From Eledone cirrhosa (lineage: Eukaryota), in contig OZ024748.1 in the NCBI GenBank assembly GCA_964016885.1, positions 31,062,001 through 31,126,000 on the forward strand: 64,000 nt of DNA. Reading direction: 5' to 3'. The notes below the pieces were generated by a model. The model was not told the DNA's origin and did not search any database. It was given only the letters and a program-made list of their open reading frames with translations. The stretch's first letter is position 1. Every line of letters starts with the position of its first letter. The position numbers were made by a program, and so were the translations under genes. Of the stretch, positions 23,701 through 55,100 are shown one piece after another.

Positions 23701-25965
23701 AGGGATGGGATTGGGGTTTAAGTGTAAGTCTAAGGCTTGGGGTTGGGGTTTAAGTCTAAGTCTAAGGCTTTGTGTTGGGGTTTAAGTATACGGGTTGGGC
23801 TAAGGCTTGTGGTTGTGGTTAGGTTGTAAGTCTAAAGATTGTTATTAGGGTTTAATTCTAAGGCTTGAGGTTGTGGTTTAAGTCTATGTATAAGGCTTGA
23901 GGTTGGGGTTTAATTCTAAGTCTAAGGCTTTGGTTTGTTGTTTGTGTCTCCGTCTAAGGCTTGAGGTTTCAGCTTAAATCTAACTCTAATTCTTGGAGTG
24001 GGGGTTTAAGTCTAAGTCTAAGTTTTGGGGTTGGGGTTTAAGTCTAAGGCTTGCGGTTCGGGTTTAAATCTATGTCTAATTCTTGTGGTTGGGGTTTAAG
24101 TCTAAGTCTAAAGCTTGGGTTTGTGGTTTAAGTCTACGTCTAAGGGTTGGTTTAGGATTTAAGTCTAAGACTTGGGGTTAGGGTTTAAGTTTAAGTCTCA
24201 GGATTGGGATTGAGGTTTAAATTCTAAGTCTAAGGCTTGTGTTTTAAGTCTAATCTAAGGCTTGAGGTTAGTGTTTAAGTCTAAGTCTAAGGCTTGGAGT
24301 TGGGGCTTAAGTCTAAGGCTTGTGGTTTGGGTTTAAATCTAAGGCTTGGAGTTGGGGTTTACGTCTAAGTCTAAAGTTTGGCGTTTGGGTTTAAGTCTAA
24401 ATCGAAGTTTAAGTTTACGTCTAAGTTTAAGTTTACGTCTAAGTCTAAGGGTTGGGGTTTAAGTCTAAGGCTTGGGGTTGGGGTTTAAGTTTAGGTCTAA
24501 GACTTGGGGTTAGAGATTAAGTGTAAGCTTTGGGTTGGGGTTTAAGTCGACGCCTAAGGCTTGAGGTTGGGGTTTAAGTCTAAGTCTAAGTTTAAGTTTA
24601 CCTCTAAGGCTATGCGTTGGGGTTTAGTCTAAGTCTAAGGGTTGGTGTTTAAGTCTCAGACTAAGTCTAAGGCTGGGGGTTTGGGTTTAAGTCTAAGTCT
24701 AAGCCTTTGGATTGGGGTTTAAATCTATGTCTAAGGGTTGGGGTTGGGGTTTAAGTCTAAGTCTAAGGCTTGGGGTTGGGGTTTATGTTTAAGGCTTGTG
24801 GTTATGTGTTAATTCTAAGGCTTGGAGTTGGGGTTTAAATCTAAGTCTAATGCTAGTGGTTGGGGTTTAAGTCTAAGTCTAAGGCTTGGGTTTCGGGTTT
24901 AAATCTATGTCAATGGCTTGGGTTTTAAGTCTAAGTCTAAGATTTAATGTTGGGTTTTAAGTCTAATTCTAAGGCTAGGTGTTTTGGTTTGGGGTACGGA
25001 TTTAATTCTAATTCTAAAGCTTGGGTTGGGGTTTAAGTCTAAATCTAAGGCTTGGTGTTGCGGTGTATGTGTAAGGCTAAGGCTTGCGCTTGTGCTTCAA
25101 GTCTAACTCTGAGGCTTGGGCTTGGGCTTGGGGTGTAAGTCTAAGTCTAAGATTTGTGGTTGGGGTTTAACTCTATGTCTAAGGCTTGCGGTTTAAGTCT
25201 AAGTCTAAATCTTAATGTTGGGGATTAAGTCTAAGTCTAAGGCTTGGGTTCGGGTTTAAATTTAATTCTAAGGCTTTGGGTTTAGGTTTAAGTCTAAGTC
25301 TAAGGCTTGGTGTTGGGGATTATGTCTATGACTAAGGCTTTGGGTTGTGGTTTAAGTCTAAGTCTAAGGCCTGGGCTTGGTATTTAAATCTAAGTATAAG
25401 GCTTGGGTGTCGAGGATTATGTCTAAGTCTAAGGCTTGGGGTTGGGGTTTTAGTTTAACTCTAAGGATAGGAGTTGGTGTTTAAGTCTAAGTCTAAGGCT
25501 TGGTGTTGGGCTTTATGTCTAAGGCTTGTGGTTATGGTTTAATTCTGAGGCTTGGAGTTGGGGTTTAAGTCTAAGTCTAATGCTAGTGGTTGGGGTTTAA
25601 GCCTAAGTCTAAAGCTTGGGGTTGGGGTTTAAGTCTACGTCTAAGGCTTGAGGTTGGGGTTTAAATCTATGTTTATGGCTTGGGGATTAAATCTAAGTTT
25701 AAGGCTTAAGGTTGGGGTTTAAGTCTACGTCTAAGGCTTGGGCTTGGGGTATAAGTCTAATTCTAAGGATAAGGTTGGGGTTCGTGTTTAATTCTAAGTC
25801 TAAGGCTTTGGTTTGGGGTTTAAGTTTAAGTCTAAAGCTACGGTTTGGAGTTTAAGTCTAATTCTAAGGCTTTGTGTAGAGGTTTAAGGCTACGACCAAG
25901 GCTTGGGTTTGGGGTTTAAATCTAAGTCTTATGCTTGTGGTTGGGGTTCAAGTCTAAGTCTAACG
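14728..25965 (-). repeat. Satellite A, right arm part 1, G-rich on + strand
   Basis: Reverse complement of the same monomer: AAGTCTAAGTCTAAGGCTTGGGGTTGGGGTTT. Confidence 0.97.
20870..24700 (-). repeat. Near-identical tandem higher-order repeat in satellite A, period 1649 bp
   Basis: Marker AAATCGAAG starts at 21101, 22750 and 24399. Marker GTATACGGG occurs at 22137 and 23786. All spacings are 1649 bp. Boundaries are approximate. Confidence 0.88.
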
Positions 25966-33584: not shown

Positions 33585-36500
33585 ATTATGTGGTGTAAAT
33601 CAGTGTTGGTGGACATTAGGCGGAGTGAATCAGTGGAGGTGTGGTGGACATTAGGTGGAGTGAATCGATAGTGGTGTGGTGGACATTAGGTGGAGTGAAT
33701 CAGTTGTGGTGAACATTAGGTGGAATGAATCCGTGGTGGTGGACATTAGGTGGAGTGAATCAGTGGTGCTGGACATTAGGTGGAGTAAATCATTGGTGGT
33801 GGATATTAGCTGGATTGAATTGGTAGTGGTAGATATTAGGTAGAGTGACTCAGTGGTGCTGTGTTGGACATTAGGTGGAATGAAGCAGTGGTGGTGTGGT
33901 GGACATCAGGTGGAGTTACTCGGTACTGTTCTGGTGGACATTAGGTGGAGTGAATCAGTGGTGGTGGACATTAGGTGGAGAGAATCAATGGTAGGGGACA
34001 TTAGGTAGAGTGAATCAGTGATGGTGTGGTGGACATTAGGTGGAGTGAATCAGTGGTGCTGGACATTAGGTGGAGTGCATCAGTGGTGTAGACATTAGAT
34101 AGAGTGAATCAGTGGTGGTGTGGTGGACATAAGGTGGAATAAATCAGCAGTGGTGTGGTAGACATTATGTGGTGTAAATCGGTGGTGGTGGAGATTATGT
34201 GGTGTGAATCAGTGTTGCTGGACATTTGGTGTAGTTAATCAGTCGTTGTGGATGTTAGGTGGAGTAAATCAGTGGTGGTGTGGTGGACATCAGGTGGAGT
34301 AAATCGGTGGTGGTGGACATTAGGTGGAGTGAATCCGGGGTTGTGGACATTAGGTGGAGTGAATCAGTGGAGGTGTGGTGGACATTAGGTGGAGTGAATC
34401 GGGAGTGTGTGGGGGACATTAGGTGGAGTGAATCAGTGGTGGTGTGCTGGATATTAGGTTGGGTGAATCAGTGGTGGGGGACATTAGGTGGAATGAATCA
34501 GTTGTGGTGGACATTAGGTGGAATGAATCAGTTGTGGTGGACATTAGGTGGAGTGAATAAGTGGTGGTGGACATTAGATGGAATGAATCAGTGGTGTGAA
34601 TCAGTGGTGGTGTGGTGGACATGAGTAGAGTGAATCGGTGGTGGTGTGGTGGACAGTAGGTAAAGTTAATCATTGGTGGTGGACGTTAGGTAGAGTGAAT
34701 CAGTGGTGGTGGACATTAGGTGGAGTGAATCACTGGTGGTGTGTTGGACATTAGGTGGAGTGAATCAGTGGTGGTGGACGTTAGGTAGAGTGAATCAGTG
34801 GTGGTGGACATTAAGTGGAGTGAATCAGTGGTGGTGGACGTTAGGTAGAGTGAATCAGTGGTGGTGGACATTAAGTGGAGTGAATCAGTGGTGGTGTACA
34901 TCAGGTGGAGTGAATCAGTGGTGGTGGACGTTAGGTAGAGTGAATCAGTGGTGAGTGACATTAGGTGGAGTGAATCAGTGGTGGTGTGTTGGACATTAGG
35001 TGGAGTGAATCAGTGGTGGTGGACGTTAGCTAGATAGAATCAGTGGTTGTGGACATTAGGTGGAGTGAATCAGTGGTGGTGTGTTGGACATTAGGTGGAG
35101 TGAATCAGTGGTGGTGGACATTAGGTGGAGTGAATCAGTGGTGGTGTGGTGGACATTAGGTGGAGTGAATCTGTGGTGGTGTACATTAAGTGGAGTGAAT
35201 CAGTGCTGGTCTGGTGGACATTAGGTGGAGTGAATCAGTGCTGGTGGACATTAGGTAGAGTGAATCAGTGGTGGTGTGTTGGACATTAGGTGGAGTGAAT
35301 CAGTGGTGGTGGACATTAGGTAGAGTGAATCCTTGGTGGTGGACATTTGATGGAGTGAATCTGTGGTGGTGTGTTCGACATTAGGTGGAGTGATTCAGTA
35401 GTGGTGTGGTGGACATTAGGTGGAGTGAATCGGTAGTTGTGTGGTGGACATTAGGTGGAGTGAATCTATGGTGGTGTGGTGGACATTAGGTAGGGTGAAT
35501 CGGTGGTGGGGGACATTAGTTAGTGTTTATCAGTGGTGGTGTGGTGGGCATTCGGTGGAGTGAATCAGTGGTGCTGCACATTAGGTTGAATGAATCAGTG
35601 GTTGTGGACATTAGGTAGAGTGAATCAGTGGCAGTGTGGTGGACATTAGGTGGAGTGAATCATTGGTGGTGGACATTAGGTAGAGTGAATCAGTGGCAGT
35701 GTGGTGGACATTAGGTGGAGTGAATCTGTTGTGGTGGACTTTAAGTGGAGTGAATAAGGGTGTTGTCTTGGACATTAGGCGGAGTGAATCAGTGGTTGTG
35801 TGGTGGACATTAGGTGGAATAAATCAGTGGTGGTGGACATTAGGAGGAGTGAATCAGTTGTGCTGGACATTAGGTGGAGTGAATCAGTGGCAGTGTGGTG
35901 GACATTAGGTGGAGTGAATCTGTTGTGGTGGACATTAAGTGGAGTGAATAAGGGTGGTGTCTTCGACATTAGATAGAGTGAATCAGTGGTGGTCTGGTGG
36001 ACATTAGGTGGAATAAATCTGTGGTGGTGGACATTAGGAGGAGTGAATCTGTGGTGGTGGACATTAAGGGGAATGAATCAGTGGTGGTGTGGTGGACATT
36101 AGGTGGAGTGAATCAGTGGTGGTGTGGTGGACATTAGGTGGAGTGAATCTGTAGTGGTGCACATGAGGTAGAGTGAATTAGTGGTGGTGTGTTGGACATT
36201 AGGTGGTGTGAATCAGTGGTGGTGTGGTGGACAGTAGGTAGATTTAACCATTGGTCCTGGACGTTAGGTAGAGTGAATCAGTGGTGGTGGACATTAGGTG
36301 GAGTGAATCAGTGGTGGTGTGTTGGACATTAGGTGGAGTGAATCAGTGGTGGTTGACGTTAGGTAGAGTGAATCAATTGTGGTGGACGTCAGGTAGAGTG
36401 AATCAGTGGTAGTGGACATTAGGTGGAGAGAATCAGTGGTGGTGTGTTGGACATGAGGTGGAGTGAATCAGTGGTGGTTGACGTTAGGTAGAGTGAATCA

Positions 36501-39500
36501 ATTGTGGTGGACGTCAGGTAGAGTGAATCAGTGGTAGTGGACATTAGGTGGAGAGAATCAGTGGTGGTGTGTTGGACATGAGGTGGAGTGAATCAGTGGT
36601 GGTGGACGTTAGGTAGAGTGAATCAGTGGTGGTGGACATTAGGTGGAGTGAATCAGTGGTGGTGTGGTGGACATTAGGTGGAGTGAATCAGTGCTTGTGT
36701 AGTGGACATTAGGTGGAGTGAATCTGTGGTGGTGGACATTAAATGGAGTGAATCAGTGCTGGTGTGGTGGACATTAGGTGGAGTGAATCAGTGCTGGTGT
36801 GGTGGACATTAGGTGGAGTGAATCTGTAGTGGTGCACATGAGGTAGAGTAAATTAGTGGTGGTGTGTTTGACATTAGGTGGTGTGAATCAGTGGTGGTGT
36901 GGTGGACATTAGGTGGAGTGTATCGGTAGTGGTGGACATTAGGTGGAGAGCATCAATGGTGGTAGATATTAGGTAGAGTGAATCAGGGATGTTGTGGTGG
37001 ACATTAGGTGGAGTGAATACTTGGTGGTGGGACATTTGATGGAGTGAATCAGTGGTGGTGGACATTAGGTGGAGAGAATCAGTGGTGGTGGACATTAAGT
37101 GGAGTGTATCGGCAGTGGTGGTTATTAGGTGGAGAGAATCAATGGTAGGGGACAGTAGGTAGAGCTAATCAGTGATGGTGTGGTGGACATTAGGTGGAGT
37201 GAATCAGTGGTGCTGGACATTAGGTGGAGTGCATCAGTGGTGTAGACATTAGATAGAGTGAATCAGTGGTGGTGTGGTGGACATAAGGTGGAATAAATCA
37301 GCAGTGGTGTGGTAGACATTATGTGGTGTAAATCGGTGGTGGTGGAGATTATGTGGTGTGAATCAGTGTTGCTGGACATTTGGTGTAGTTAATCAGTCGT
37401 TGTGGATGTTAGGTGGAGTAAATCAGTGGTGGTGTGGTGGACATTAGGTGGAGTGAATCGGGAGTGTGTGGGGGACATTAGGTGGAGTGAATCAGTGGTT
37501 GTGTGCTGGATATTAGGTTGGGTGAATCAGTGGTGGGGGACATTAGGTGGAATGAATCAGTTGTGGTGGACATTAGGTGGAGTGAATAAGTGGTGGTGGA
37601 CATTAGATGGAATGAATCAGTGGTCGGGGACATTAGGTGGTGTGAATCAGTGGTGGTGTGGTGGACATGAGTAGAGTGAATCGGTGGTGGTGTGGTGGAC
37701 AGTAGGTAGAGTTAATCATTGGTGGTGGACGTTAGGTCGAGTGAATCAGTGGTGGTGGACATTAGGTGGAGTGAATCACTGGTGGTGTGTTGGACATTAG
37801 GTGGAGTGAATCAGTGGTGGTGGACGTTAGGTAGAGTGAATCAGTGGTGGTGGACATTAAGTGGAGTGAATCAGTGCTGGTGGACGTTAGGTAGAGTGAA
37901 TCAGTGGTGAGTGACATTAGGTGGAGTGAATCAGTGGTGGTGGACGTTAGCTAGATAGAATCAGTGGTTGTGGACATTAGGTGGAGTGAATCAGTGGTGG
38001 TGTGTTGGACATTAGGTGGAGTGAATCAGTGGTGGTGGACATTAAGTGGAGTGAATCAGTGGTGGTGTACATCAGGTGGAGTGAATCAGTGGTGGTGGAC
38101 GTTAGGTAGAGTGAATCAGTGGTGAGTGACATTAGGTGGAGTGAATCAGTGGTGGTGTGTTGGACATTAGGTGGAGTGAATCAGTGGTGGTGGACGTTAG
38201 CTAGATAGAATCAGTGGTTGTGGACATTAGGTGGAGTGAAATCAGTGGTGGTGTGTTGGACATTAGGTGGGGTGAATCAGTGGTGGTGGACATTAGGTGG
38301 AGTGAATCAGTGGTGGTGTGGTGGACATTAGGTGGAGTGAATCTGTGGTAGTGTACATTAAGTGGAGTGAATCAGTGCTGGTCTGGTGGACATTAGGTGG
38401 AGTGAATCAGTGCTGGTGGACATTAGGTAGAGTGAATCAGTGGTGGTGTGTTGGACATTAGGTGGTATGAATCAGTGGTGGTGTGTTGGACATTAGGTGG
38501 AGTGAATCAGTGGTGGTGGACATTAAGTGGAGTGAATCAGTGGTGGTGTACATCAGGTGGAGTGAATCAGTGGTGGTGGACGTTAGGTAGAGTGAATCAG
38601 TGGTGAGTGACATTAGGTGGAGTGAATCAGTGGTGGTGTGTTGGACATTAGGTGGAGTGAATCAGTGGTGGTGGACGTTAGCTAGATAGAATCAGTGGTT
38701 GTGGACATTAGGTGGAGTGAAATCAGTGGTGGTGTGTTGGACATTAGGTGGGGTGAATCAGTGGTGGTGGACATTAGGTGGAGTGAATCAGTGGTGGTGT
38801 GGTGGACATTAGGTGGAGTGAATCTGTGGTAGTGTACATTAAGTGGAGTGAATCAGTGCTGGTCTGGTGGACATTAGGTGGAGTGAATCAGTGCTGGTGG
38901 ACATTAGGTAGAGTGAATCAGTGGTGGTGTGTTGGACATTAGGTGGTATGAATCAGTGGTAGTGTGGTGGACATTAGGTAGAGTGAATCCTTGGTGGTGG
39001 ACATTTGATGGAGTTAATCAGTGGTGGTGGACATTAGGTAGAGTGAATCTGTGGTGGTTCACATTAGGTAGAGTGAATCAGTGGTGGTGGACATTAGGTG
39101 GAGTGTATAGGTGGTGGTATGGTGGACATTAGGTGGCGTAAATCGGTGGTGGTGGACGTTAGATGTAGTGAATCAGTGGTGGTGTGTTCGACATTAGGTG
39201 GAGTGATTCAGTAGTGGTGTGGTGGACATTAGGTGGAGTGCATCAGTGGTAGTGTGGTGGACATTAGGTAGAGTGAATCGGTAGTTGTGTGGTGGACATT
39301 AGGTGGAGTGAATCTATGGTGGTGTGGTGGACATTAGGTAGGGTGAATCGGTGGTGGGGGACATTAGGTTGAATGAATCAGTGGTGGTGGACATTCGGTG
39401 GAGTGAATCAGTGGTGCTGCACATTAGGTTGAATGAATCAGTGGTGGTGGACATTTGGTAGAGTGAATCAGTGGCAGTGTGGTGGACATTAGGTGGAGTG

Positions 39501-40731
39501 AATCTGTTGTGGTGGATTTTAAGTGGAGTGAATAAGGGTGTTGTCTTGGACATTAGGCGGAGTGAATCAGTGGTTGTGTGGTGGACATTAGGTGGAATAA
39601 ATCAGTGGTGGTGGACATTAGGAGGAGTGAATCAGTTGTGCTGGACATTAGGTGGAGTGAATCAGTGGCAGTGTGGTGGACATTTGGTGGAGTGAATCTG
39701 TTGTGGTGGACATTAAGTGGAGTGAATAAGGGTGGTGTCTTCGACATTAGATAGAGTGAATCAGTGGTGGTGTGGTGGACATTAGGTGGAATAAATCTGT
39801 GGTGGTGGACATTAGGAGGAGTGAATCTGTGGTGGTGGACATTAAGGGAAATGAATCAGTGGTGGTGTGGTGGACATTAGGTGGAGTGAATCAGTGGTGG
39901 TGGACATTAAGTGGAGTGAATCAGTGGTGGTGTGGTGGACAGTAGGTAGAGTGAATCAGTGGTGGTGGACATTAGGAGGAGTGAATCAGTGGTGGTGTGT
40001 TGGACATTAGGTGGAGTGAATTAGTGGTGGTTGACGTTAGGTAGAGTGAATCAATTGTGGTGGACGTCAGGTAGAGTGAATCAGTGGTAGTGGACATTAG
40101 GTGGAGTGAATCAGTGGTGGTGTGTTGGACATTAGGTGGAGTGAATCACTGGTGGTGGACGTTAGGTAGAGTGAATCAGTGGTGGTGGACATTAGGTGGA
40201 GTGAATCAGTGGTGGTGTGGTGGACATTAGGTGGAGTGAATCAGTGCTAGTGTAGTGGACATTAGGTGGAGTGAATCTGTGGTGGTGGACATTAAGTGGA
40301 GTGAATCAGTGCTGGTGTGGTGGACATTAGGTGGAGTGAATCAGTGCTGGCGTGGTGGACATTAGGTGGAGTGAATATGTAGTGGTGCACATGAGGTAGA
40401 GTGAATTAGTGGTGGTGTGTTGGACATTAGGTGGTGTGAATCAGTGGTGGTGTGGTGGACAGTAGGTGGAGTGTATCGGTAGTGGTGGAGAGCATCAATG
40501 GTGGTAGATATTAGGTAGAGTGAATCAGGGATGTTGTGGTGGACATTAGGTGGAGTGAATCAGTGGTAGTGTGGTGGACACTAGGTAGAGTGAATACTTG
40601 GTGGTGGGACATTTGATGGAGTGAATCAGTGGTGGTGGACATTAGGTGGAGTGAATCAGTGATGGTGGAAATTAGGTAGAGTGAATCTGTGGTTGTTCAC
40701 ATTAGGTAGAGAGAATCAGTGGTGGTGGACA
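33585..40731 (+). repeat. Satellite B, left of the insertion; 30/35-bp monomer
   Basis: Tandem GGACATTAGGTGGAGTGAATCAGTGGTGGT with an optional extra GTGGT. Block duplications are visible, e.g. a 3778-bp offset between 35693 and 39471. Confidence 0.97.
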
Positions 40732-40792
40732 TGTAGCGGTTGTCTCCCTTGTTTTGATTAGGATCTAGACGGGAAGTGGAACCCTTTCTGCA

Positions 40793-40816
40793 ACTTCCGG
40801 TCAGAGCCCTATAAAA
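40793..40816 (+). promoter_or_regulatory. Putative LTR promoter: ETS-type ACTTCCGG plus TATA box TATAAAA
   Basis: ACTTCCGG at 40793-40800 and TATAAAA at 40810-40816, in the U3 position expected for an LTR promoter. Motif match only. Confidence 0.5.
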
Positions 40817-41032
40817 CTAACAACTTTAAGCTTTCTAACTCTCTTTGCCTTTTCGGCACCAGGTCAAGAGCCTCTCATTTGGCTCTGCCATTAATTTGGC
40901 CAACAGGCGCCTGGCCTTAGCCAGGCGTCCTCTGCCAGCCGCGTTTGCCTGGCAATCAAAACGGTAACTACTAACTTTGTTTCATTCTAACATCTATCTT
41001 TGACATGTCAAGTATACTATCTACCATTGTTA

Positions 41033-41038
41033 ATTAAA
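41033..41038 (+). promoter_or_regulatory. Putative LTR polyadenylation signal ATTAAA
   Basis: Variant hexamer ~60 bp before the LTR end. Motif match only. Confidence 0.35.
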
Positions 41039-41101
41039 TATTATACACACAAACCATGTCTCGTTTTGTTACATTCATACAACCCAGTATCCTCGCTATA
41101 T

Positions 41102-41119
41102 TGGTAACCCTGACGTGAT
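41102..41119 (+). promoter_or_regulatory. Primer-binding site, tRNA-Trp type
   Basis: TGGTAACCCTGACGTGAT lies 1 nt after the LTR. It matches TGGTGACCCCGACGTGAT (complement of the animal tRNA-Trp 3' end, recalled from memory) at 16/18 positions. Confidence 0.85.
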
Positions 41120-41318
41120 ACGAACACGCAGCCGTTCATCGCTATAAGTGGTCACCCCCCCAAAAAAAGAAAAAAATAGCACATCTGGTTTTGTGAGTAA
41201 CATTACGAATACACAGCAAATTTAGCGACAAACTATGAAAATACTCAAGGACACGCACACACGCACATGTGGAATTCGCACAGACAGACTTTTTCTCTCA
41301 CGCATCAATTAACTGTCG

Positions 41319-41460
41319 CATTTCACCAATATATATATGTTTCTCGTTTCTTACAACGAACACTTTCAAAACAAAAAAGAAAAAAAAACATTTCACGATA
41401 TATATATATGTTTCTCGTTTCTTACAACGAACTCTTTCAAAACACACAAAAAAAAAAAAA
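41319..41460 (+). repeat. 70-bp tandem duplication ending in A-tracts, inside the element
   Basis: CATTTCAC..ATATATATATGTTTCTCGTTTCTTACAACGAAC.CTTTCAAAAC(A-rich) at 41319 and 41389. Confidence 0.85.
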
Positions 41461-42479
41461 GAAATTTGATATTCTTTAAAAAACATTTCAACAGGCACAT
41501 TTATTTTCGATGAACCATTGCCTTTTTGTTCATCGTTTTCTTCATCGTTCAAGTTTTTTGTTTTTTTCCAAAGTTCACACCAATAATTATGCTGAGTGAA
41601 GCCTTTCTTTTTCATCATTGTCACTTTCAACATTGCACTATCATTTTCTCGCGCGTTAGAAATATTATTTTTTTTCAACCTTGTATTGGCACGTGTAGGC
41701 AGCACACATTCTCGATTCACAGAGATGTCTCTACTCACAGACAGCCGCACGCCATAGATAACATTTCTCACCAGGGATTCTTCAGCCTTAAGCTATATTC
41801 TTCTATTTGCCGGTTTATAAATTTACAATGTAAATTTACAGTTGATAACCGCGCATTTATTAAGAATGCTTATTTCTCTGGTCGCTGGCCTCTTGACCCT
41901 TCCAGGTCAACGCATTCTCAACATCGACCATCAACTTCGGCTGCTATTTCTAGCACCTTGCGCCACTCATTTTTTCTAAAAAAAGGAGAAAAATTTTTTT
42001 TTTACTGTGAATTTAAACACTGAATACGCTCACTCAGCGAGACAACAGCAGCAGCAACAGCAATATAACAGCAACAGCAATACATCAATACAGCTTCACC
42101 AAAGCCAGAGAATTCATTTTTGCAGCACTCTTCCTGTGAGAAAATCCATTCGGAGGTTGGAAATTTCACGATATACCACAGAACAGAAACCACCTGCATT
42201 CATTCTCTGGAACACACTTTCTTTCCTGCTGTCATGTGATTGCACACCTGTGAACTATATTTTGAACTTTGAGCTCTTCTATTACTTTTACTTTATTACA
42301 TTGTATCTTTGGGTGATGGATAGATGGATGTCCAGTCGTTCTCTGGCCAAGAGCGGTTGGCTACCTTGATATCTATCATTGATTTTTCCAAACATTCTTT
42401 TGTCGTAATTTTCATGCCTGTTACAACATTCTCGCCAACTTGCTACATATTTTCATTTCGATTTTTATACACTAAAATT

Positions 42480-42493
42480 CTGGCGGGAGGTTA
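42480..42493 (+). promoter_or_regulatory. Polypurine tract (plus-strand primer)
   Basis: CTGGCGGGAGGTTA directly precedes the TG of the second LTR. Confidence 0.75.
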
Positions 42494-42772
42494 TGTAGCG
42501 GTTGTCTCCCTTGTTTTGATTAGGATCTAGACGGGAAGTGGAACCCTTTCTGCAACTTCCGGTCAGAGCCCTATAAAACTAACAACTTTAAGCTTTCTAA
42601 CTCTCTTTGCCTTTTCGGCACCAGGTCAAGAGCCTCTCATTTGGCTCTGCCATTAATTTGGCCAACAGGCGCCTGGCCTTAGCCAGGCGTCCTCTGCTAG
42701 CCGCGTTTGCCTGGCAATCAAAACGGTAACTACTAACTTTGTTTCATTCTAACATCTATCTTTGACATGTCA
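42494..42772 (+). repeat. 3' LTR, direct copy, truncated after 279 bp
   Basis: Matches 40732-41010 except CTGCCAGC to CTGCTAGC. Stops at TGACATGTCA. Confidence 0.92.
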
Positions 42773-43128
42773 GGGTTGTATGAATGTAACAAGGAATACA
42801 TGGTTTGTGTGTATAATATTTAATTAACAATGGTAGATAGTATACTTGACATGTCAAAGATAGATGTTAGAATGAAACAAAGTTAGTAGTTACCGTTTTG
42901 ATTGCCAGGCAAACGCGGCTGGCAGAGGACGCCTGGCTAAGGCCAGGCGCCTGTTGGCCAAATTAATAGCAGAGCCAAATGAGAGGCGGCTCTTGACCTG
43001 GTGCCGAAAAGGCAAAGAGAGTTAGAAAACTTAAAGTTGTTAGTTTTATAGGGCTCTGACCGGAAGTTGCAGAAAGGGTTCCACTTCCCGTCTAGATCCT
43101 AATCAAAACAAGGGAGACAACCGCTACA
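42773..43128 (-). repeat. Inverted LTR copy lacking the last 15 bp of the LTR
   Basis: Reverse complement of 40732-41085 with a 3-bp insertion (GAGAGGCGGCTC), two substitutions and one small variant cluster (AAGGAATACA versus AAAACGAGACA). Confidence 0.92.
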
Positions 43129-46100
43129 GACATTAAGTGAAGTGTATCGGCAGTGGTGGTTATTAGGTGGAGAGAATCAATGGTAGGGGACAGTAGGTAG
43201 AGCTAATCAGTGATGGTGTGGTGGACATTAGCTGGAGTGAATCAGTGGTGCTGGACATTAGGAGGAGTGAATAAGTGGTGGTGTGGTGGATATTAGGTGG
43301 AGTGAATCAGTGCTGGTGGACATTAGGTAGAGTGAATCAGTGGTGGTGTGTTGGACATTAGGTGGAGTGAATCAGTGGTGTTGGACATTAGGTGGAGTGA
43401 ATCAGTAGTGGTGTGGTGGACATTAGGTGGAGTGCATCATTGGTAGTGTTGTGGACATTAGGTGGAGTGAATCGGTAGTGGTGTGGTGGAGATTAGGTGG
43501 AGTGAATCGGTAGTGGTGTGGTGGACATTAGGTGGAGTGAATCTATGGTGGTGTGGTGGACATTAAGTAGGGTGAATCGGTGTTGGGGGACATTAGCTAG
43601 TGTTTATCAGTGGTGGTGTGGTGGACATTCGGTGGAGAGAATCAGTGGTGCTGGACATTAGGTGGAATGCACCAGTGGTGGTGGACATTAGGTAGAGTGA
43701 ATCAGTGGTGGTGTGGTGGACATCAGGTGGAGTGAATCAGTGGTGGTGTGCTGGACATTAGGTAGAGTGACTCGGTAGTGGGGTGGTGGACATTAGGTGG
43801 AGTGAATCAGTAGTGGTGGTTATTAGCTGGAGTGAATCAATGGTGGTGGACATTAGGTGGAGTAAATCAGCGGTGGTGGACATTAGGTAGAGTGAATCTG
43901 TGGTGGTGGATATTAGGTAGAGTGAATCAGTGGTGGTGTGTTGGATATTAGGTGGAATGAATCAGCGATGGTGTGGTGGACATTAGGTGGCGTGAATCAG
44001 TGGTGGTGTGGTGGACATTAGGTGGAGTGAATCAGTGGTGTTGGACATTAAGTGGAATGAATCAGTGGTGGTGGACGTTAAGTGGAATGAATCAGTGGTG
44101 GTGTGGTGGACAGTAGGTAGAGTTAATCATTGGGGGTGGACGTTAGATAGAGTGAATCAGTGGTGGTGTGTTGGACATTAGGTGGAGTGAATCAGTGGTG
44201 GTGGACATTAGGTGGAATGAATCAGTGGTGGTGTGGTGGACATTAGGTGGAGTGAATCTGTGTTGGTGGACATTAGGTAGAGTGAATCAGTGGTGGTGTG
44301 TTGGACATTAGGTGGAGTGAATCAGTGGTGTTGGACATTAGGTGGAGTGAATCAGTGGTGGTGGACATTAGGTAGAGTGAATCAGTGGTGGTGTGTTGGA
44401 CATTAGGTGGAGTGAATCAGTGGTGTTGGACATTAGGTGGAGTGAATCAGTGGTGGAGTGGTGGACATTAGGTGGAGTGAATCAGTGGTGGTGGACATTA
44501 GGTGGAGTGAATCAGTGGTGGTGTTGTGGACATTAGGTTCAGTGAATCGGTAGTGGTGTGGTGGACATTAGGTGGAGTGAATCAGTGGTGGTGCGCTGGA
44601 TATTAGGTACGGTGAATCAGTGGTTGGAGCCATTAGGTAGAGTGAATCAGTGGTGGTGGACATTAGGTGGAGCGAATCAGTGGTGGTGGACATTAGGTGG
44701 AGTGAATCAGTGGTGGTGGATATTAGGTGGAGTGAATCAGTGGTGGTGTGGCGGACATTAGGTGGAGAGAATCCTTGGTGGTGGGTATTTGATGGAGTGT
44801 ATCAGTGGTGGTGGACATTAGGTGGAGTGTATCGGTAGTGGTGTGGTGGACATTAGGTGGAGTGAATCTATGGTGGTGTGTTGGACATTAAGTAGGGTGA
44901 ATCGGTGTTGGGGGACATTAGCTAGTGTTTATCAGTGGTGGTGTGGTGGACATTCGGTGGAGAGAATCAGTGGTGCTGGACATTAGGTGGAATGCACCAG
45001 TGGTGGTGGACATTATGTAGAGTGAATCAGTGGCAGTGTGATGGACATTAGGTTGAGTGAATCATTGGTGGTGGACATTAGGTGGAGTGAATCAGTGGTG
45101 GTGTGGTGGACATCAGGTGGAGTGAATCAGTGGTGGTGTGCTGGACATTAGGTAGAGTGACTCGGTAGTGGGGTGGTGGACATTAGGTGGAGTGAATCAG
45201 TAGTGGTGGTTATTAGCTGGAGTGAATCAATGGTGGTGGACATTAGGTGGAGTGAATCAGTGGTGGTGTGGTGGACATTAGGTGGAGTGAATCTGTGTTG
45301 GTGGACATTAGGTAGAGTGAATCAGTGGTGGTGTGTTGGACATTAGGTGGAGTGAATCAGTGGTGTTGGACATTAGGTGGAGTGAATCAGTGGTGGTGTG
45401 GTGGATATTAGGTGGAGTGAATCAGTGCTGGTGGACATTAGGTAGAGTGAATCATTGGTGGTGTGTTAGACATTAGGTGGAGTGAATCAGTGGTGTTGGA
45501 CATTAGGTGGAGTGAATCAGTGGTGGTGTGGTGGATATTAGGTGGAGTGAATCAGTGCTGGTGGACATTAGGTAGAGTGAATCAGTGGTGGTGTGTTGGA
45601 CATTAGGTGGAGTGAATCAGTGGTGTTGGACATTAGGTGGAGTGAATCAGTGGTGGTGGACATTAGGTAGAGTGAATCAGTGGTGGTGTGTTGGACATTA
45701 GGTGGAGTGAATCAGTGGTGTTGGACATTAGGTGGAGTGAATCAGTGGTGGAGTGGTGGACATTAGGTGGAGTGAATCAGTGGTGGTGGACATTAGGTGG
45801 AGTGAATCAGTGGTGGTGTTGTGGACATTAGGTTGAGTGAATCGGTAGTGGTGTGGTGGACATTAGGTGGAGTGAATCAGTGGTGGTGCGCTGGATATTA
45901 GGTACGGTGAATCAGTGGTTGGAGCCATTAGGTAGAGTGAATCAGTGCTGGTTGACATTAGGTGGCGTGAATCAGTGGTGGTGGACATTAGGTGGAGTGA
46001 ATCAGTGGTGGTGGATATTAGGTGGAGTGAATCAGTGGTGGTGGATATTAGGTTGAGTGAATCAGTGGTGGTGGACATTAGGTGGAGCGAATCAGTGGTG

Positions 46101-49100
46101 GTGGACATTAGGTGGAGTGAATCAGTGGTGGTGGATATTAGGTGGAGTGAATCAGTGGTGGTGTGGCGGACATTAGGTGGAGAGAATCCTTGGTGGTGGG
46201 TATTTGATGGAGTGTATCAGTGGTGGTGGACATTAGGTGGAGTGTATCGGTAGTGGTGTGGTGGACATTAGGTGGAGTGAATCTATGGTGGTGTGTTGGA
46301 CATTAAGTAGGGTGAATCGGTGTTGGGGGACATTAGCTAGTGTTTATCAGTGGTGGTGTGGTGGACATTCGGTGGAGAGAATCAGTGGTGCTGGACATTA
46401 GGTGGAATGCACCAGTGGTGGTGGACATTATGTAGAGTGAATCAGTGGCAGTGTGATGGACATTAGGTTGAGTGAATCATTGGTGGTGGACATTAGGTGG
46501 AGTGAATCAGTGGTGGTGTGGTGGACATCAGGTGGAGTGAATCAGTGGTGGTGTGCTGGACATTAGGTAGAGTGACTCGGTAGTGGGGTGGTGGACATTA
46601 GGTGGAGTGAATCAGTAGTGGTGGTTATTAGCTGGAGTGAATCAGCGGTGGTGGACATTAGGTAGAGTGAATCTGTGGTGGTGGATATTAGGTAGAGTGA
46701 ATCAGTGGTGGTGTGTTGGATATTAGGTGGAATGAATCAGCGATGGTGTGGTGGACATTAGGTGGCGTGAATCAGTGGTGGTGTGGTGGACATTAGGTGG
46801 AGTGAATCAGTGGTGGTGGACATTAAGTGGAATGAATCAGTGGTGGTGGACATTAAGTGGAATGAATCAGTGGTGGTGTGGTGGACAGTAGGTAGAGTTA
46901 ATCATTGGTGGTGGACGTTAGATAGAGTGAATCAGTGGTGGTGTGTTGGACATTAGGTGGAGTGAATCAGTGGTGGTGGACATTAGGTGGAATGAATCAG
47001 TGGTGGTGTGGTGGACATTAGGTGGAGTGAATCTGTGTTGGTGGACATTAGGTAGAGTGAATCAGTGGTGGTGTGTTGGACATTAGGTGGAGTGAATCAG
47101 TGGTGTTGGACATTAGGTGGAGTGAATCAGTGGTGGTGTGGTGGATATTAGGTGGAGTGAATCAGTGCTGGTGGACATTAGGTAGAGTGAATTAGTGGTG
47201 GTGTGTTGGACATTAGGTGGAGTGAATCAGTGGTGTTGGACATTAGGTGGAGTGAATCAGTGCTGGTGGACATTAGGTAGAGTGAATCAGTGGTGGTGTG
47301 TTGGACATTAGGTGGAGTGAATCAGTGGTGTTGGACATTAGGTGGAGTGAATCAGTGGTGGTGGACATTAGGTAGAGTGAATCAGTGGTGGTGTGTTGGA
47401 CATTAGGTGGAGTGAATCAGTGGTGTTGGACATTAGGTGGAGTGAATCAGTGGTGGAGTGGTGGACATTAGGTGGAGTGAATCAGTGGTGGTGGACATTA
47501 GGTGGAGTGAATCAGTGGTGGTGTTGTGGACATTAGGTTGAGTGAATCGGTAGTGGTGTGGTGGACATTAGGTGGAGTGAATCAGTGGTGGTGCGCTGGA
47601 TATTAGGTACGGTGAATCAGTGGTTGGAGCCATTAGGTAGAGTGAATCAGTGCTGGTTGACATTAGGTGGCGTGAATCAGTGGTGGTGGACATTAGGTGG
47701 AGTGAATCAGTGGTGGTGGATATTAGGTGGAGTGAATCAGTGGTGGTGGACATTAGGTGGAGTGAATCAGTGGTGGTGGATATTAGGTGAAGTGAATCAG
47801 TGGTGGTGTTGTGGGCATTAGGTTGAGTGAATCATTGGTGGTGGACATTAGGTGGTGTGAATCAGTGGTGGTGTGGCGGACATTAGGTGGAGAGAATCCT
47901 TGGTGGTGGGTATTTGATGGAGTGTATCAGTGGTGGTGGACATTAGGTGGAGTGTATCGGTGGTGGTATGGTGGACATTAGGTGGCGTAAATCGGTGGTG
48001 GTGGACATTAGATGGAGTGAACCAGTGGTGGTGTTTTCGACATTAGGTGGAGTGAATCAGTAGCGGTGTGGTGGACATGAGGTGGAGTGAATCTATGGTG
48101 GTGTGGTGGGACATTAGGTAGGGTGAATCGGTGGTGGGGGACATTAATTAGTGTTTATCAGTGGTGGTGTGGTGGAGATTCGGTGGGGTGAATCAGTGGT
48201 GCTGGACATTAGGTGGAATGAATCAGTGGTGGTGGACATTAGTTAGAGTGAATCAGTGGCAGTGTGGTGGACATAAGGTGGAATAAATCAGTGGTGGTGG
48301 ACATTAGGAGGAGTGAATCAGTGGTGGTGTGTTGGACATTAGGTGGACTGAATCAGTGGTGGTGTACATTAGGAGGAGTGAATCAGTGGTGGTGGACATT
48401 AAGTGGAATGAATCAGTTGTGGTGTGGTGGACATCGGGTGGAGTGAATCAGTGGTGGTGTGGTTGACATTAGGTGGAGTGAATCAGTGGTGGTGTGTGGG
48501 ATATTAGGCAGAATGAATCATTGGTCGTTGACATTAGGTGGAGTGAATCAGTGGTGTTGGACATTAGGTGGAGTGAATCAGTGGTGGTGGACATTAAGTG
48601 GAGTGAATCAGTGGTGGTGTGGTGGACAGTAGGTAGAGTTAATCATTGGTGCTGGACGTTAGGTAGAGTGAATCAGTGGTGGTCGACATTAGGTGGAGTG
48701 AATCAGTGGTGGTGTGCTGGACATTAGGTGGAGTGAATCAGTGGTGATTGACGTTAGGTAGAGTGAATCAATTGTGGTGGACGTCAGGTAGAGTGAATCA
48801 GTGCTGGTGGACATTAGGTGGAGTGAATCAGTGGTGGTGTGTTGGACATGAGGTGGAGTGAATCAGTGGTGGTGGACGTTAGGTAGAGTGAATCAGTGGT
48901 GGTGGACATTAGGTGGAGGGAATGAGTGGTGGTGTGTTGGACATTAGGTGGAGTGAATCAGTGGTGGTGGACATTAGGTGGAGTGAATCAGTGGTGGTGT
49001 GGTGGACATTAGGTGGAGTGAATCAGTGGTGGTGGACGTTAGGTAGAGTGAATCAGTGGTGGTGGACATTAGGTGGAGGGAATGAGTGGTGGTGTGTTGG

Positions 49101-52100
49101 ACATTAGGTGGAGTGAATCAGTGGTGGTGGACATTAGGTGGAGTGAATCAGTGGTGGTGTGGTGGACATTAGGTGGAGTGAATCTGTAGTGGTGGACATT
49201 AGGTAGAGCGAATCAGTGGTGGTGTGTTGGACATTAGGTGGTGTGAATCAGTGGTGGTGCAGTGGACATTGGGTGGTGTGAATCGGTAGTGGTGGACATT
49301 AGGTGGAGAGAATCAACGGCGGTAGATATTAGGTAGAGTGAATTAGGTATGTTGTGGTGGACATTAGGTGGAGTGAATCAGTGGTAGTGTGGTGGACACT
49401 AGGTAGAGTGAATACTTGGTGGTGGACATTTGATGGAGTGAATCAGTGGTGGTGGACATTAGGTGGAGTGAATCAGTGGTGGTGGATATTAGGTAGATTG
49501 AATCAGTGGTGGTGGACATAAGGTAGACTGAATCAGTGGTGCTGGACATTAGGTAGACTGAATCAGTGGTGGTGTGTTGGACATTAGGTGGAGTGAATCA
49601 GTGGTGGTGGACATTAGGTGGAGTGAATCAGTGGTGATGTGGTGGACATTAGGTGGAGTGAATCTGTGTTGGTGGACATTAGGTAGAGTGAATCAGTGGT
49701 GGTGTGTTGGACATTAGGTGGAGTGAATCAGTGGTGTTGGACATTAGGTGGAGTGAATCAGTGGTGGTGTGGTGGATATTAGGTGGAGTGAATCAGTGCT
49801 GGTGGACATTAGGTAGAGTGAATCATTGGTGGTGTGTTAGACATTAGGTGGAGTGAATCAGTGGTGTTGGACATTAGGTGGAGTGAATCAGTGGTGGTGT
49901 GGTGGATATTAGGTGGAGTGAATCAGTGCTGGTGGACATTAGGTAGAGTGAATCAGTGGTGGTGTGTTGGACATTAGGTGGAGTGAATCAGTGGTGTTGG
50001 ACATTAGGTGGAGTGAATCAGTGGTGGTGGACATTAGGTAGAGTGAATCAGTGGTGGTGTGTTGGACATTAGGTGGAGTGAATCAGTGGTGTTGGACATT
50101 AGGTGGAGTGAATCAGTGGTGGAGTGGTGGACATTAGGTGGAGTGAATCAGTGGTGGTGGACATTAGGTGGAGTGAATCAGTGGTGGTGTTGTGGACATT
50201 AGGTTGAGTGAATCGGTAGTGGTGTGGTGGACATTAGGTGGAGTGAATCAGTGGTGGTGCGCTGGATATTAGGTACGGTGAATCAGTGGTTGGAGCCATT
50301 AGGTAGAGTGAATCAGTGCTGGTTGACATTAGGTGGCGTGAATCAGTGGTGGTGGACATTAGGTGGAGTGAATCAGTGGTGGTGGATATTAGGTTGAGTG
50401 AATCATTGGTGGTGGACATTAGGTGGTGTGAATCAGTGGTGGTGTGGCGGACATTAGGTGGAGAGAATCCTTGGTGGTGGGTATTTGATGGAGTGTATCA
50501 GTGGTGGTGGACATTAGGTAGAGTGAATCAGTGGTGGTGGACATTAGGTGGAGTGTATCGGTGGTGGTATGGTGGACATTAGGTGGCGTAAATCGGTGGT
50601 GGTGGACATTAGATGGAGTGAACCAGTGGTGGTGTTTTCGACATTATGTGGAGTGAATCAGTAGCGGTGTGGGGGACATGAGGTGGAGTGAATCTATGGT
50701 GGTGTGGTGGGACATTAGGTAGGGTGAATCGGTGGTGGGGGACATTAGTTAGTGTTTATCAGTGGCAGTGTGGTGGACATAAGGTGGAATAAATCAGTGG
50801 TGGTGGACATTAGGAGGAGTGAATCAGTGGTGGTGTACATTAGGAGGAGTGAATCAGTGGTGGTGTGTTGGACATTAGGTGGACTGAATCAGTGGTGGTG
50901 TACATTAGGAGGAGTGAATCAGTGGTGGTGGACATTAAGTGGAATGAATCAGTTGTGGTGTGGTGGACATCAGGTGGAGTGAATCAGTGGTGGTGTGGTT
51001 GACATTAGGTGGAGTGAATCAGTGGTGGTGTGTGGGATATTAGGCAGAGTGAATCATTGGTCGTTGACATTAGGTGGAGTGAATCAGTGGTGGTGTGTGG
51101 GATATTAGGCAGAGTGAATCATTGGTCGTTGACATTAGGTGGACTGAATCAGTGGTGGTGTACATTAGGAGGAGTGAATCAGTGGTGGTGGACATTAAGT
51201 GGAATGAATCAGTTGTGGTGTGGTGGACATCAGGTGGAGTGAATCAGTGGTGGTGTGGTTGACATTAGGTGGAGTGAATCAGTGGTGGTGTGTGGGATAT
51301 TAGGCAGAGTGAATCATTGGTCGTTGACATTAGGTGGAGTGAATCAGTGGTGTTGGACATTAGGTGGAGTGAATCAGTGGTGGTGGACATTAAGTGGAGT
51401 GAATCAGTGGTGGTGTGGTGGACAGTAGGTAGAGTTAATCATTGGTGCTGGACGTTAGGTAGAGTGAATCAGTGGTGGTCGACATTAGGTGGAGTGAATC
51501 AGTGGTGGTGTGGTGGACATTAGGTGGAATAAATCAGTGGTGGTGGACATTAGGAGGAGTGAATCAGTGGTGGTGTACATTAGGAGGAGTGAATCAGTGG
51601 TGGTGGACATTAGGTAGAGTGAATCAGTGGTGGTGTGTTGGACATTAGGTGGACTGAATCAGTGGTGGTGGATATTAGGTGGAGTGAATCAGTGGTGGTG
51701 TGGCGGACATTAGGTGGAGAGAATCCTTGGTGGTGGGTATTTGATGGAGTGTATCAGTGGTGGTGGATATTAGGTGGAGTGTATCGGTAGTGGTGTGGTG
51801 GACATTAGGTGGAGTGAATCTATGGTGGTGTGTTGGACATTAAGTAGGGTGAATCGGTGTTGGGGGACATTAGCTAGTGTTTATCAGTGGTGGTGTGGTG
51901 GACATTCGGTGGAGAGAATCAGTGGTGCTGGACATTAGGTGGAATGCACCAGTGGTGGTGGACATTATGTAGAGTGAATCAGTGGCAGTGTGATGGACAT
52001 TAGGTTGAGTGAATCATTGGTGGTGGACATTAGGTGGAGTGAATCAGTGGTGGTGTGGTGGACATCAGGTGGAGTGAATCAGTGGTGGTGTGCTGGACAT

Positions 52101-55100
52101 TAGGTAGAGTGACTCGGTAGTGGGGTGGTGGACATTAGGTGGAGTGAATCAGTAGTGGTGGTTATTAGCTGGAGTGAATCAATGGTGGTGGACATTAGGT
52201 GGAGTGAATCAGTGGTGGTGTGGTGGACATTAGGTGGAGTGAATCTGTGTTGGTGGACATTAGGTAGAGTGAATCAGTGGTGGTGTGTTGGACATTAGGT
52301 GGAGTGAATCAGTGGTGTTGGACATTAGGTGGAGTGAATCAGTGGTGGTGTGGTGGATATTAGGTGGAGTGAATCAGTGCTGGTGGACATTAGGTAGAGT
52401 GAATCATTGGTGGTGTGTTAGACATTAGGTGGAGTGAATCAGTGGTGTTGGACATTAGGTGGAGTGAATCAGTGGTGGTGTGGTGGATATTAGGTGGAGT
52501 GAATCAGTGCTGGTGGACATTAGGTAGAGTGAATCAGTGGTGGTGTGTTGGACATTAGGTGGAGTGAATCAGTGGTGTTGGACATTAGGTGGAGTGAATC
52601 AGTGGTGGTGGACATTAGGTAGAGTGAATCAGTGGTGGTGTGTTGGACATTAGGTGGAGTGAATCAGTGGTGTTGGACATTAGGTGGAGTGAATCAGTGG
52701 TGGAGTGGTGGACATTAGGTGGAGTGAATCAGTGGTGGTGGACATTAGGTGGAGTGAATCAGTGGTGGTGTTGTGGACATTAGGTTGAGTGAATCGGTAG
52801 TGGTGTGGTGGACATTAGGTGGAGTGAATCAGTGGTGGTGCGCTGGATATTAGGTACGGTGAATCAGTGGTTGGAGCCATTAGGTAGAGTGAATCAGTGC
52901 TGGTTGACATTAGGTGGCGTGAATCAGTGGTGGTGGACATTAGGTGGAGTGAATCAGTGGTGGTGGATATTAGGTGGAGTGAATCAGTGGTGGTGGATAT
53001 TAGGTTGAGTGAATCAGTGGTGGTGGACATTAGGTGGAGCGAATCAGTGGTTGTGGACATTAGGTGGAGTGAATCAGTGGTGGTGGATATTAGGTGGAGT
53101 GAATCAGTGGTGGTGTGGCGGACATTAGGTGGAGAGAATCCTTGGTGGTGGGTATTTGATGGAGTGTATCAGTGGTGGTGGACATTAGGTGGAGTGTATC
53201 GGTAGTGGTGTGGTGGACATTAGGTGGAGTGAATCTATGGTGGTGTGTTGGACATTAAGTAGGGTGAATCGGTGTTGGGGGACATTAGCTAGTGTTTATC
53301 AGTGGTGGTGTGGTGGACATTCGGTGGAGAGAATCAGTGGTGCTGGACATTAGGTGGAATGCACCAGTGGTGGTGGACATTATGTAGCGTGAATCAGTGG
53401 CAGTGTGATGGACATTAGGTTGAGTGAATCATTGGTGGTGGACATTAGGTGGAGTGAATCAGTGGTGGTGTGGTGGACATCAGGTGGAGTGAATCAGTGG
53501 TGGTGTGCTGGACATTAGGTAGAGTGCCTCGGTAGTGGGGTGGTGGACATTAGGTGGAGTGAATCAGTAGTGGTGGTTATTAGCTGGAGTGAATCAATGG
53601 TGGTGGACATTAGGTGGAGTGAATCAGTGGTGGTGTGGTGGACATTAGGTGGAGTGAATCTGTGTTGGTGGACATTAGGTAGAGTGAATCAGTGGTGGTG
53701 TGTTGGACATTAGGTGGAGTGAATCAGTGGTGTTGGACATTAGGTGGAGTGAATCAGTGGTGGTGTGGTGGATATTAGGTGGAGTGAATCAGTGCTGGTG
53801 GACATTAGGTAGAGTGAATCATTGGTGGTGTGTTAGACATTAGGTGGAGTGAATCAGTGGTGTTGGACATTAGGTGGAGTGAATCAGTGGTGGTGTGGTG
53901 GATATTAGGTGGAGTGAATCAGTGCTGGTGGACATTAGGTAGAGTGAATCAGTGGTGGTGTGTTGGACATTAGGTGGAGTGAATCAGTGGTGTTGGACAT
54001 TAGGTGGAGTGAATCAGTGGTGGTGGACATTAGGTAGAGTGAATCAGTGGTGGTGTGTTGGACATTAGGTGGAGTGAATCAGTGGTGTTGGACATTAGGT
54101 GGAGTGAATCAGTGGTGGAGTGGTGGACATTAGGTGGAGTGAATCAGTGGTGGTGGACATTAGGTGGAGTGAATCAGTGGTGGTGTTGTGGACATTAGGT
54201 TGAGTGAATCGGTAGTGGTGTGGTGGACATTAGGTGGAGTGAATCAGTGGTGGTGCGCTGGATATTAGGTACGGTGAATCAGTGGTTGGAGCCATTAGGT
54301 AGAGTGAATCAGTGCTGGTTGACATTAGGTGGCGTGAATCAGTGGTGGTGGACATTAGGTGGAGTGAATCAGTGGTGGTGGATATTAGGTGGAGTGAATC
54401 AGTGGTGGTGGATATTAGGTTGAGTGAATCAGTGGTGGTGGATATTAGGTTGAGTGAATCATTGGTGGTGGACATTAGGTGGTGTGAATCAGTGGCGGTG
54501 TGGCGGACATTAGGTGGAGAGAATCCTTGGTGGTGGGTATTTGATGGAGTGTATCAGTGGTGGTGGACATTAGGTAGAGTGAATCAGTGGTGGTGGACAT
54601 TAGGTGGAGTGTATCGGTGGTGGTGTGCTGGACATTAGGTAGAGTGACTCGGTAGTGGGGTGGTGGACATTAGGTGGAGTGAATCAGTAGTGGTGGTTAT
54701 TAGCTGGAGTGAATCAGCGGTGGTGGACATTAGGTAGAGTGAATCTGTGGTGGTGGATATTAGGTAGAGTGAATCAGTGGTGGTGTGTTGGATATTAGGT
54801 GGAATGAATCAGCGATGGTGTGGTGGACATTAGGTGGCGTGAATCAGTGGTGGTGTGGTGGACATTAGGTGGAGTGAATCGGTAGTGGTGTGGTGGACAT
54901 TAGGTGGAGTGAATCAGTGGTGGTGCGCTGGATATTAGGTACGGTGAATCAGTGGTTGGAGCCATTAGGTAGAGTGAATCAGTGCTGGTTGACATTAGGT
55001 GGCGTGAATCAGTGGTGGTGGACATTAGGTGGAGTGAATCAGTGGTGGTGGATATTAGGTGGAGTGAATCAGTGGTGGTGGATATTAGGTTGAGTGAATC

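Follow-up and report, generated by a model that had tools for sequence, protein, structure and literature searches.

We analyzed a stretch of 64,000 nucleotides from the genome of Eledone cirrhosa (assembly GCA_964016885.1, contig OZ024748.1, positions 31,062,001 to 31,126,000 of the forward strand), hereafter called the window. It contains a non-coding long terminal repeat (LTR) retroelement that closes with an extra, inverted LTR and thus presents the unique 3' (U3) end of an LTR at both termini. A canonical LTR insertion has direct LTRs, with one U3 end and one unique 5' (U5) end, and this is the arrangement of ordinary copies of the same family. The locus in the window is an aberrant, recurrent integration product and not a new mobile element. 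Such like-end products have arisen at least three times independently in this genome; they are rare, and no instance has been copied. That they reflect recurrent integration by two U3 ends, and not a family of elements bounded by terminal inverted repeats (TIRs), is in our judgment very probable.

The composite is 2,397 bp long (40732-43128) and is inserted in a satellite with 30/35-bp units (Table 1). It consists of a 5' LTR (LTR1), a tRNA-Trp primer binding site (PBS), a non-coding interior, a polypurine tract (PPT), a 279-bp LTR stub (LTR2), and an inverted 356-bp LTR (LTR3), with GACA on both sides. An earlier interpretation of the window, made without database searches (the sequence-only reading), had proposed this order, and re-examination of the sequence confirmed it. 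The TIRs of about 355 bp described there also hold: the inverted arms (356 bp, or LTR positions 1-354) share 97.2% identity over 357 columns, and TGTAGCGGTTGTCTCCCTTG is read inward at both termini. The TG...CA ends to which it referred need correction: the LTRs of this family terminate in TA (TG...TA). LTR2 and LTR3 meet at a blunt junction that lacks microhomology. LTR3 carries a U5 haplotype unlike that of LTR1, plus three private changes, and both haplotypes are frequent among family copies (20 and 26 of 46).

The origin of each terminus can be read because the two ends of the family's LTR are unequal: the inward sequence is TGTAGCG from the U3 end and TATAGCG from the U5 end. We found three composites in total, namely the window element and two loci designated L062 and L117. 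The right ends of all three read TGTAGCG and lie flush against a TSD (target site duplication) that is exact, direct, and 4 bp long (GACA in the window, AATG at L062, and AAAC at L117). Because TGTAGCG occurs at three of three right ends, whereas the LTR ends in GCTATA in 47 of the 50 LTR rows listed, the right end is derived from U3 to the second base. The simplest reading to which these observations point is a staggered cut that an integrase joined to two U3 ends. The direct 4-bp TSD and the U3-type sequence at both ends, repeated at three loci, also agree with the original suggestion that the inverted architecture was already present when the element integrated and that a DDE integrase inserted it, which we consider most likely.

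The TSD in the window needed a separate test because GACA is present in nearly every unit of the host satellite, and a false TSD could result from two insertions followed by a deletion. Within the window, the final 23 bases before the left GACA-flanked border recur at just one other place, 37072, where a single GACA runs straight into right-flank units (118 of 120 bases are identical). The units upstream are also collinear (36470-37018 with 40023-40560), except that about three units are missing in the paralog. Because this paralog joins the two flanks through one GACA, the flanks were neighbors before the insertion. The 4-bp TSD noted earlier around the whole composite is therefore genuine. 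A simple ungapped score for the joint does not clearly reveal the empty-site adjacency because of the indel of about three units. Two insertions plus a deletion are ruled out by the empty paralog and by the TSDs of L062 and L117, which sit in non-satellite DNA.

Table 1. Positions of the composite element, its parts, and related satellite features in the window
Feature	Position	Strand	Remarks
Left TSD copy, GACA	40728..40731	+	Based on the sequence and the empty paralogous site
LTR1	40732..41100	+	Complete 369-bp 5' LTR, TGT...ATA
PBS	41102..41119	+	Complementary at 16 of 18 bases to the host tRNA-Trp(CCA) 3' end (CCA added)
Non-coding interior (~1.4 kb)	41101..42493	+	94-98% identity to ordinary family copies
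PPT	42482..42490	+	Followed by TTA and then the U3 start
LTR2 stub	42494..42772	+	LTR positions 1-279; differs from LTR1 at 1 place; terminates at the 10-bp palindrome TGACATGTCA
LTR3, inverted	42773..43128	-	356 bp; LTR positions 1-354, without the last 15; supplies the right-hand U3 end
Right TSD copy, GACA	43129..43132	+	
Host 30/35-bp satellite array	33598..63981	+	GTGGTGGACATTAGGTGGAGTGAATCAG-type units; broken by the element
Paralogous empty site, same satellite	37072..37210	+	Last left-flank unit, one GACA (37091-37094), right-flank units

The two further units with U3 ends facing outward were recovered by scanning for LTR motifs that precede their own reverse complement. L062 (C1:206.96 Mb, 657 bp) consists of AATG, an LTR to about position 320, AA, a complete inverted LTR, and AATG. 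L117 (C4:101.43 Mb, 2,500 bp) carries AAAC, a 5' LTR, an interior, a PPT, an LTR to position 346-348, a complete inverted LTR, and AAAC, and this layout is exactly that of the window composite. Both belong to a subfamily that is 85-88% identical to the window LTR, and each has its own junction. The main scans returned nine loci: the three composites, a nested insertion (L116), an internal fold-back (L118), and four loci of an unrelated repeat that were classed from printed sequence only. A second, independent motif scan found the same three composites and no others, and one further scan returned the window and six unrelated loci.

Other spacings and orientations were also covered. The tail-to-tail spacing ranges 18-78 and 258-318 gave no loci, and no intact tail-to-tail dimer was found; the range 80-140 gave five loci, all of the unrelated repeat. 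Head-to-head (U5-out) junctions were absent from three scans, and 628 LTRs carry both main scan motifs exactly. Like-end composites thus number 3 in about 750 insertions, or roughly 0.4%, as counted by scans that covered spacing range by range and that would miss composites with the joint in the interior, the motif removed, or the motif mismatched. The junction 24-mer from the window occurs only once in 3.0 Gb at up to one mismatch, and a BLAST-type search with the junction region yielded only half-matches to ordinary LTRs. Because this junction is unique, and because the two further composites differ from it in both junction and LTR subfamily, these units do not form a mobile TIR family. The sequence-only reading had considered either a family of LTR-derived TIR elements moving as DNA or a one-off accident. 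The first option fails on the unique junction and on the differing junctions and subfamily of the other composites, and the second fails on the existence of three independent composites with different TSDs.

The family to which the window element belongs is abundant. Its U3 start has 1,162 exact occurrences in the genome, and the first 100 of these listed form 65 clusters, of which 32 are same-strand pairs, 31 are singles, one is a triple, and one is a convergent pair; this extrapolates to the figure of about 750 insertions. Ordinary copies are either 2.1-kb elements with direct LTRs or solo LTRs. Varied 4-bp TSDs were seen for 11 of the 13 rows classed as solo (one of the misses is a mis-cut row for L062) and for 11 paired elements. 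Among the family copies compared, the PPT context is identical ahead of every 3' LTR. In the window copy, LTR1 has TATAAAA at LTR position 79 and AATTAAA at position 301, which by their sequence probably serve as promoter and poly(A) elements, and the interior holds a 71-bp tandem duplication (41319-41460). Just 3' of the PBS, a relic resembling an LTR end and PBS (41141-41158; a second GCTATA plus TGGTCACCCC) suggests an old duplication of these parts within the family. Clusters of matches to the 3' end of tRNA-Trp lie at G000:C4:277.41-277.44 Mb and C4:353.39-353.49 Mb, and the matches inspected at 277.4 Mb proved to be tRNA-Trp(CCA) genes.

None of the three open reading frames of at least 120 amino acids in the element interior has a Pfam match; the element is non-coding and encodes no transposase. 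This genome does contain elements that combine a DUF7041 gag with the same PBS, and the leader of one of them matches the first 32 interior bases at 29 positions. We take DUF7041 to be tied to the CsRN1 clade. The LTRs of the coding elements seen terminate in TACA-C and show no similarity to those of the window family, and an autonomous partner, which the sequence-only reading had proposed to look for, was not found in the sense that none of the 30 DUF7041 loci examined (of 150) bore this LTR as its own.

CsRN1-like Gypsy elements (CsRn1, PwRn1, and AgCR) are characterized by a tRNA-Trp PBS, an unbiased 4-bp TSD, and TGT...ATA (or TGT...AAA) termini (PMC2582038; here and below, statements on published work refer to excerpts of the papers cited). 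The window family shares its PBS, 4-bp TSD without target preference, and TGT...ATA termini with this clade, and it differs in being a 2.1-kb, non-autonomous family without coding sequence, of which the window copy has U3 at both ends. Because the element is non-coding, and because these features occur together with DUF7041 elements that have the same PBS, its sequence identifies it as a probable copy of a non-autonomous CsRN1-like Gypsy family that would depend on a coding partner. Non-autonomous elements of the TRIM (terminal-repeat retrotransposon in miniature) and LARD (large retrotransposon derivative) types likewise have LTRs, a PBS, and a PPT without genes, and animal gene-less LTR elements with 4-bp TSDs are thought to depend on Gypsy partners (PMC10886601). 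However, the TRIM definition is under 1 kb compared to 2.1 kb for the window family, and the excerpts of that paper do not mention the term "inverted".

Several explanations other than integration by two U3 ends have to be weighed. An assembly or library artefact, such as a fold-back chimera within the satellite, is barely credible. When the inner junction was looked up in read data, contigs from three of four runs carried it: a 59-nt read-derived contig spans 42743-42801 with no differences at depths of 7.9, 11.5, and 7.8, compared to depths in the thousands for ordinary LTR words. The three supporting runs come from one sample, possibly the source of the assembly, and the evidence consists of short contigs and not long reads, in which the junction is flanked by 30 and 29 bases (just under the 31-base bridging rule). 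The junctions are not covered in runs X1 and X6, and at the right terminus the satellite is uncovered in all four runs, which carries no weight either way. The satellite context, the single sample, and the reliance on short contigs leave some room for an artefact. However, junction words at a depth of 8-11 without differences in three runs argue against it, as do an LTR3 with a separate haplotype (which folding back of a single molecule would not give), a TSD consistent with the empty paralog, and two similar loci in non-satellite DNA. Alternatively, a normal element might have inserted first, with its right end later swapped for an inverted LTR by template switching or by gene conversion that kept the TSD, or a one-ended integration might have been rebuilt by host polymerases. 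TAGCG is common to both LTR ends and could provide microhomology, the window breakpoint lies at a 10-bp palindrome, and L118 shows that fold-back inversions happen in this family. Moreover, host repair of one-ended HIV (human immunodeficiency virus) integrations can join viral sequence in either orientation (PMC5041404), and the aberrant proviruses of HIV and ASLV (avian sarcoma-leukosis virus) described there resemble the composites in having a truncated end joined to inverted element sequence. Those proviruses, however, usually lack a normal short TSD, whereas both ends of the window element are precise and its TSD is exact. A switch at TAGCG would have retained TATA, but all three loci show TGTA, and copying of LTR1 backwards into the flank predicts a reverse-complement TSD and an LTR3 equal to LTR1, whereas direct TSDs and another U5 haplotype are seen. 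Gene conversion after insertion, which the sequence-only reading had left possible, is thus unlikely given the TGTA at right ends where U5 has TATA. Rearrangement after insertion as a whole is largely refuted already, and we rate it as quite improbable. Movement of the composite as DNA by a Ginger-like transposase, as a member of an LTR-derived TIR family, has in our view almost no chance of being correct and is refuted in this assembly. Ginger1 and Ginger2 elements have TGTNR termini, long TIRs, and a 4-bp TSD (PMC2836005), all of which are found in the window composite (TGTAG and GACA), and three TIR-bounded loci are present. Nevertheless, the three loci have no junction in common and differ in subfamily and break points, so that there is no multi-copy family with common ends and interior at different sites. 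The TIR of 354 bp exceeds the 40-270 bp of Ginger elements; their target preferences are CCGG/CCGT (Ginger1) and RTATAY (Ginger2) (PMC2836005), whereas GACA, AATG, and AAAC are not CCGG/CCGT and are AT-rich only in part. The composite also retains a PBS, a PPT, and a retroelement-type 5' LTR and encodes no transposase (no search for Ginger transposases was made elsewhere in the genome).

The question of how a DNA with two U3 ends forms is more evenly contested. We lean, by little more than an even chance, toward a model in which the extra LTR was copied backwards at the 3' end during reverse transcription from a plus-strand strong-stop DNA, and the product was then inserted by the integrase of a partner element acting on two U3 ends. 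A particle with two RNA genomes would make two plus-strand strong-stop DNAs, one of which jumps and gives rise to the 5' LTR. The extending plus strand would then displace the second strong-stop DNA and stall in the 3' LTR (at position 279 in the window, about 320 in L062, and 346-348 in L117). An end-to-end jump to the displaced strand's 3' end (position 354 in the window and 369 at each of the other loci) would follow, and this strand would be copied back to its first base, which is the U3 start defined by the PPT. Judging by the TSD and the end sequences, the resulting linear DNA would have a U3 attachment site at both ends and undergo one concerted integration. The junction has no copy elsewhere, and the TIR form is predicted to be unable to spread. 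Because standard reverse transcription of its RNA should rebuild direct LTRs, new copies would not inherit the inverted form.

The inverted arm is one LTR in three of three composites, cut at the LTR end or no more than 15 bases from it. It resembles plus-strand strong-stop DNA because it has the size of a single LTR, ends at the PPT-defined first base, and is cut at or near the U5 end. At L117, no differences separate the stub from the inverted LTR across about 330 bases, and the 5' LTR differs. Because the 5' LTR of L117 differs from its arm, and because LTR1 and LTR3 of the window carry different U5 haplotypes, two templates are visible in both composites that keep a 5' LTR, compared to 2 of 11 ordinary elements. 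Three of four private changes in the window fall on LTR3 (p ~0.13, calculated by hand); at this p value, the private changes are no proof of a second template, and the U5 block alone counts. L117 (G000:C4:101424500-101433500, locus ~2690-2720) also has its 5' LTR end joined to the LTR-end/PBS-like relic 48 bases downstream, so that the PBS is skipped. This junction occurs once in the genome and was counted as a second sign of faulty plus-strand transfer. In vitro, reverse transcriptases, including that of Tf1, can prime where ends overlap by 2 bases or are blunt (PMC3035444). That the scans returned U3-out units and no head-to-head ones also counts for the model. The strong-stop jump is favored because of the single-LTR arms cut near U5, the identity of arm and stub at L117, the two templates, and the PBS-skipping junction. 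Two ordinary elements, L012/L052 and L014/L022, have LTRs that differ from each other at 14 and 9 places, the second only in positions 281-357, and are likely two-template products.

Several points count against the strong-stop model. Only three composites are available, and three U3-out versus zero U5-out units give p 0.125 by hand, which is not significant alone. The ordinary elements compared were best BLAST matches and not a random sample. Single-LTR arms could also arise through later solo-LTR recombination, and 31 of the 65 clusters are single. The window junction is without microhomology, and the 2-base overlaps at the other two loci (TA; AA/TT) contain neither the C nor the G that the HIV clamp requires (PMC3035444). 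Four differences separate LTR2 from LTR3 in the window, and four separate the two arms of L062; under the strong-stop model, these differences must be later mutations or reverse transcriptase errors. Finally, the AA at the L062 junction fits an unprocessed end of linear cDNA, as end joining leaves it.

The blunt and short-overlap junctions and the AA of L062 fit a model with two cDNAs, the main rival, which we regard as possible but doubtful. Each cDNA would give its U3 end to one integrase complex, and host repair would link the free U5 tails by end joining, either ahead of strand transfer or following it, with one or both arms later cut to a single LTR by LTR-LTR recombination. The TSD and end evidence is the same as for the strong-stop model. 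The junction overlaps of 0-2 bases and the total loss of 21-105 bases resemble end joining, the AA of L062 matches the dinucleotide just beyond the LTR end (TT ahead of the PBS), and LTR3 of the window differs from both LTR1 and LTR2. In addition, the family's U5 end has TA instead of CA and might be a weaker substrate, and single LTRs are common. In vitro, the integrases of retroviruses and of Ty1 also act on a pair of like ends. However, the less truncated arm is LTR-only in three of three composites, even in young copies (1 difference between LTR1 and LTR2 in the window, and none between LTR2 and LTR3 at L117). The scans found neither an intact tail-to-tail dimer nor a head-to-head dimer, and the identity of LTR2 and LTR3 at L117 would require reciprocal exchange within one particle.

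These loci are evidence at the genome level that two like ends can serve a Gypsy integrase in a germ line, at roughly 3 in 750 insertions, and thereby bear on the pairing of the two cDNA ends. Because the unequal ends of this family (TGTA versus TATA) make the origin of each end readable, the like-end question can be tested by scanning assemblies. Such loci can also be mis-annotated as DNA transposons. No report of natural inverted-LTR or U3/U3 insertions was found in the literature searched, which held few subscription papers and did not extend to older studies of Ty1 and avian integrases.

The composites further offer a way in which direct LTRs can turn into long TIRs flanked by a TSD in a single step. 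In the Ginger paper, the TIRs were proposed to derive from two opposed LTRs of separate insertions, which needs two chance events, and the route from an LTR element was considered unclear (PMC2836005). The one-step route is seen here in a non-coding family, and that it led to Ginger is speculation. The broader proposal is that Gypsy reverse transcription has a recurring side-path from LTR elements to integrated long-TIR units with two U3 ends, that the same event in an integrase-coding copy gave Ginger1-type transposons, and that such units are substrates for DNA-level movement; we consider this unlikely. The composite might also affect its own family. Because LTR2 is without the AATTAAA of LTR position 301, transcripts from LTR1 are predicted to run on into LTR3. 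In a computed fold, this read-through RNA forms a 279-bp stem (-559 kcal/mol, z -63), and such a long hairpin could feed small-RNA silencing of the family.

The scans and family comparisons also brought up other unusual loci. L116 is an ordinary nested insertion. L118 (G000:C4:8360000-8368500, locus 2183-4461) has normal outer ends and the TSD ATAG, with an inverted inside: the 5' LTR to about position 309 is followed by an inverted 3' end (LTR 1-312, the PPT, and 57 interior bases) and then by the remainder. Its LTR pieces are identical across their shared length, and a fold-back during reverse transcription is likely. L063 (G000:C1:206187700-206191000, locus 502-1066) is a mini copy in which LTR positions 1-218 are joined to a PPT and a full LTR, with the TSD GCCT. 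L064 (G000:C1:204424000-204433999) has a 2.3-kb foreign stretch within the element, and two more LTR heads (positions 1-140) lie nearby, 1.24 kb apart. L106, L108, and L110-L115 belong to the unrelated repeat, which makes up many short inverted pairs and has one 11-mer in common with the LTR.

The window is almost wholly satellite DNA. Besides the host array, a second satellite with 26/32-bp units of the CTTAGACTTAAACCCC type occupies 1792-33517. It flips strand near 14,700, 25,970, and ~26,700 and includes a 1,649-bp higher-order duplication at 21014-24721. Positions 1-1790 are non-satellite DNA.

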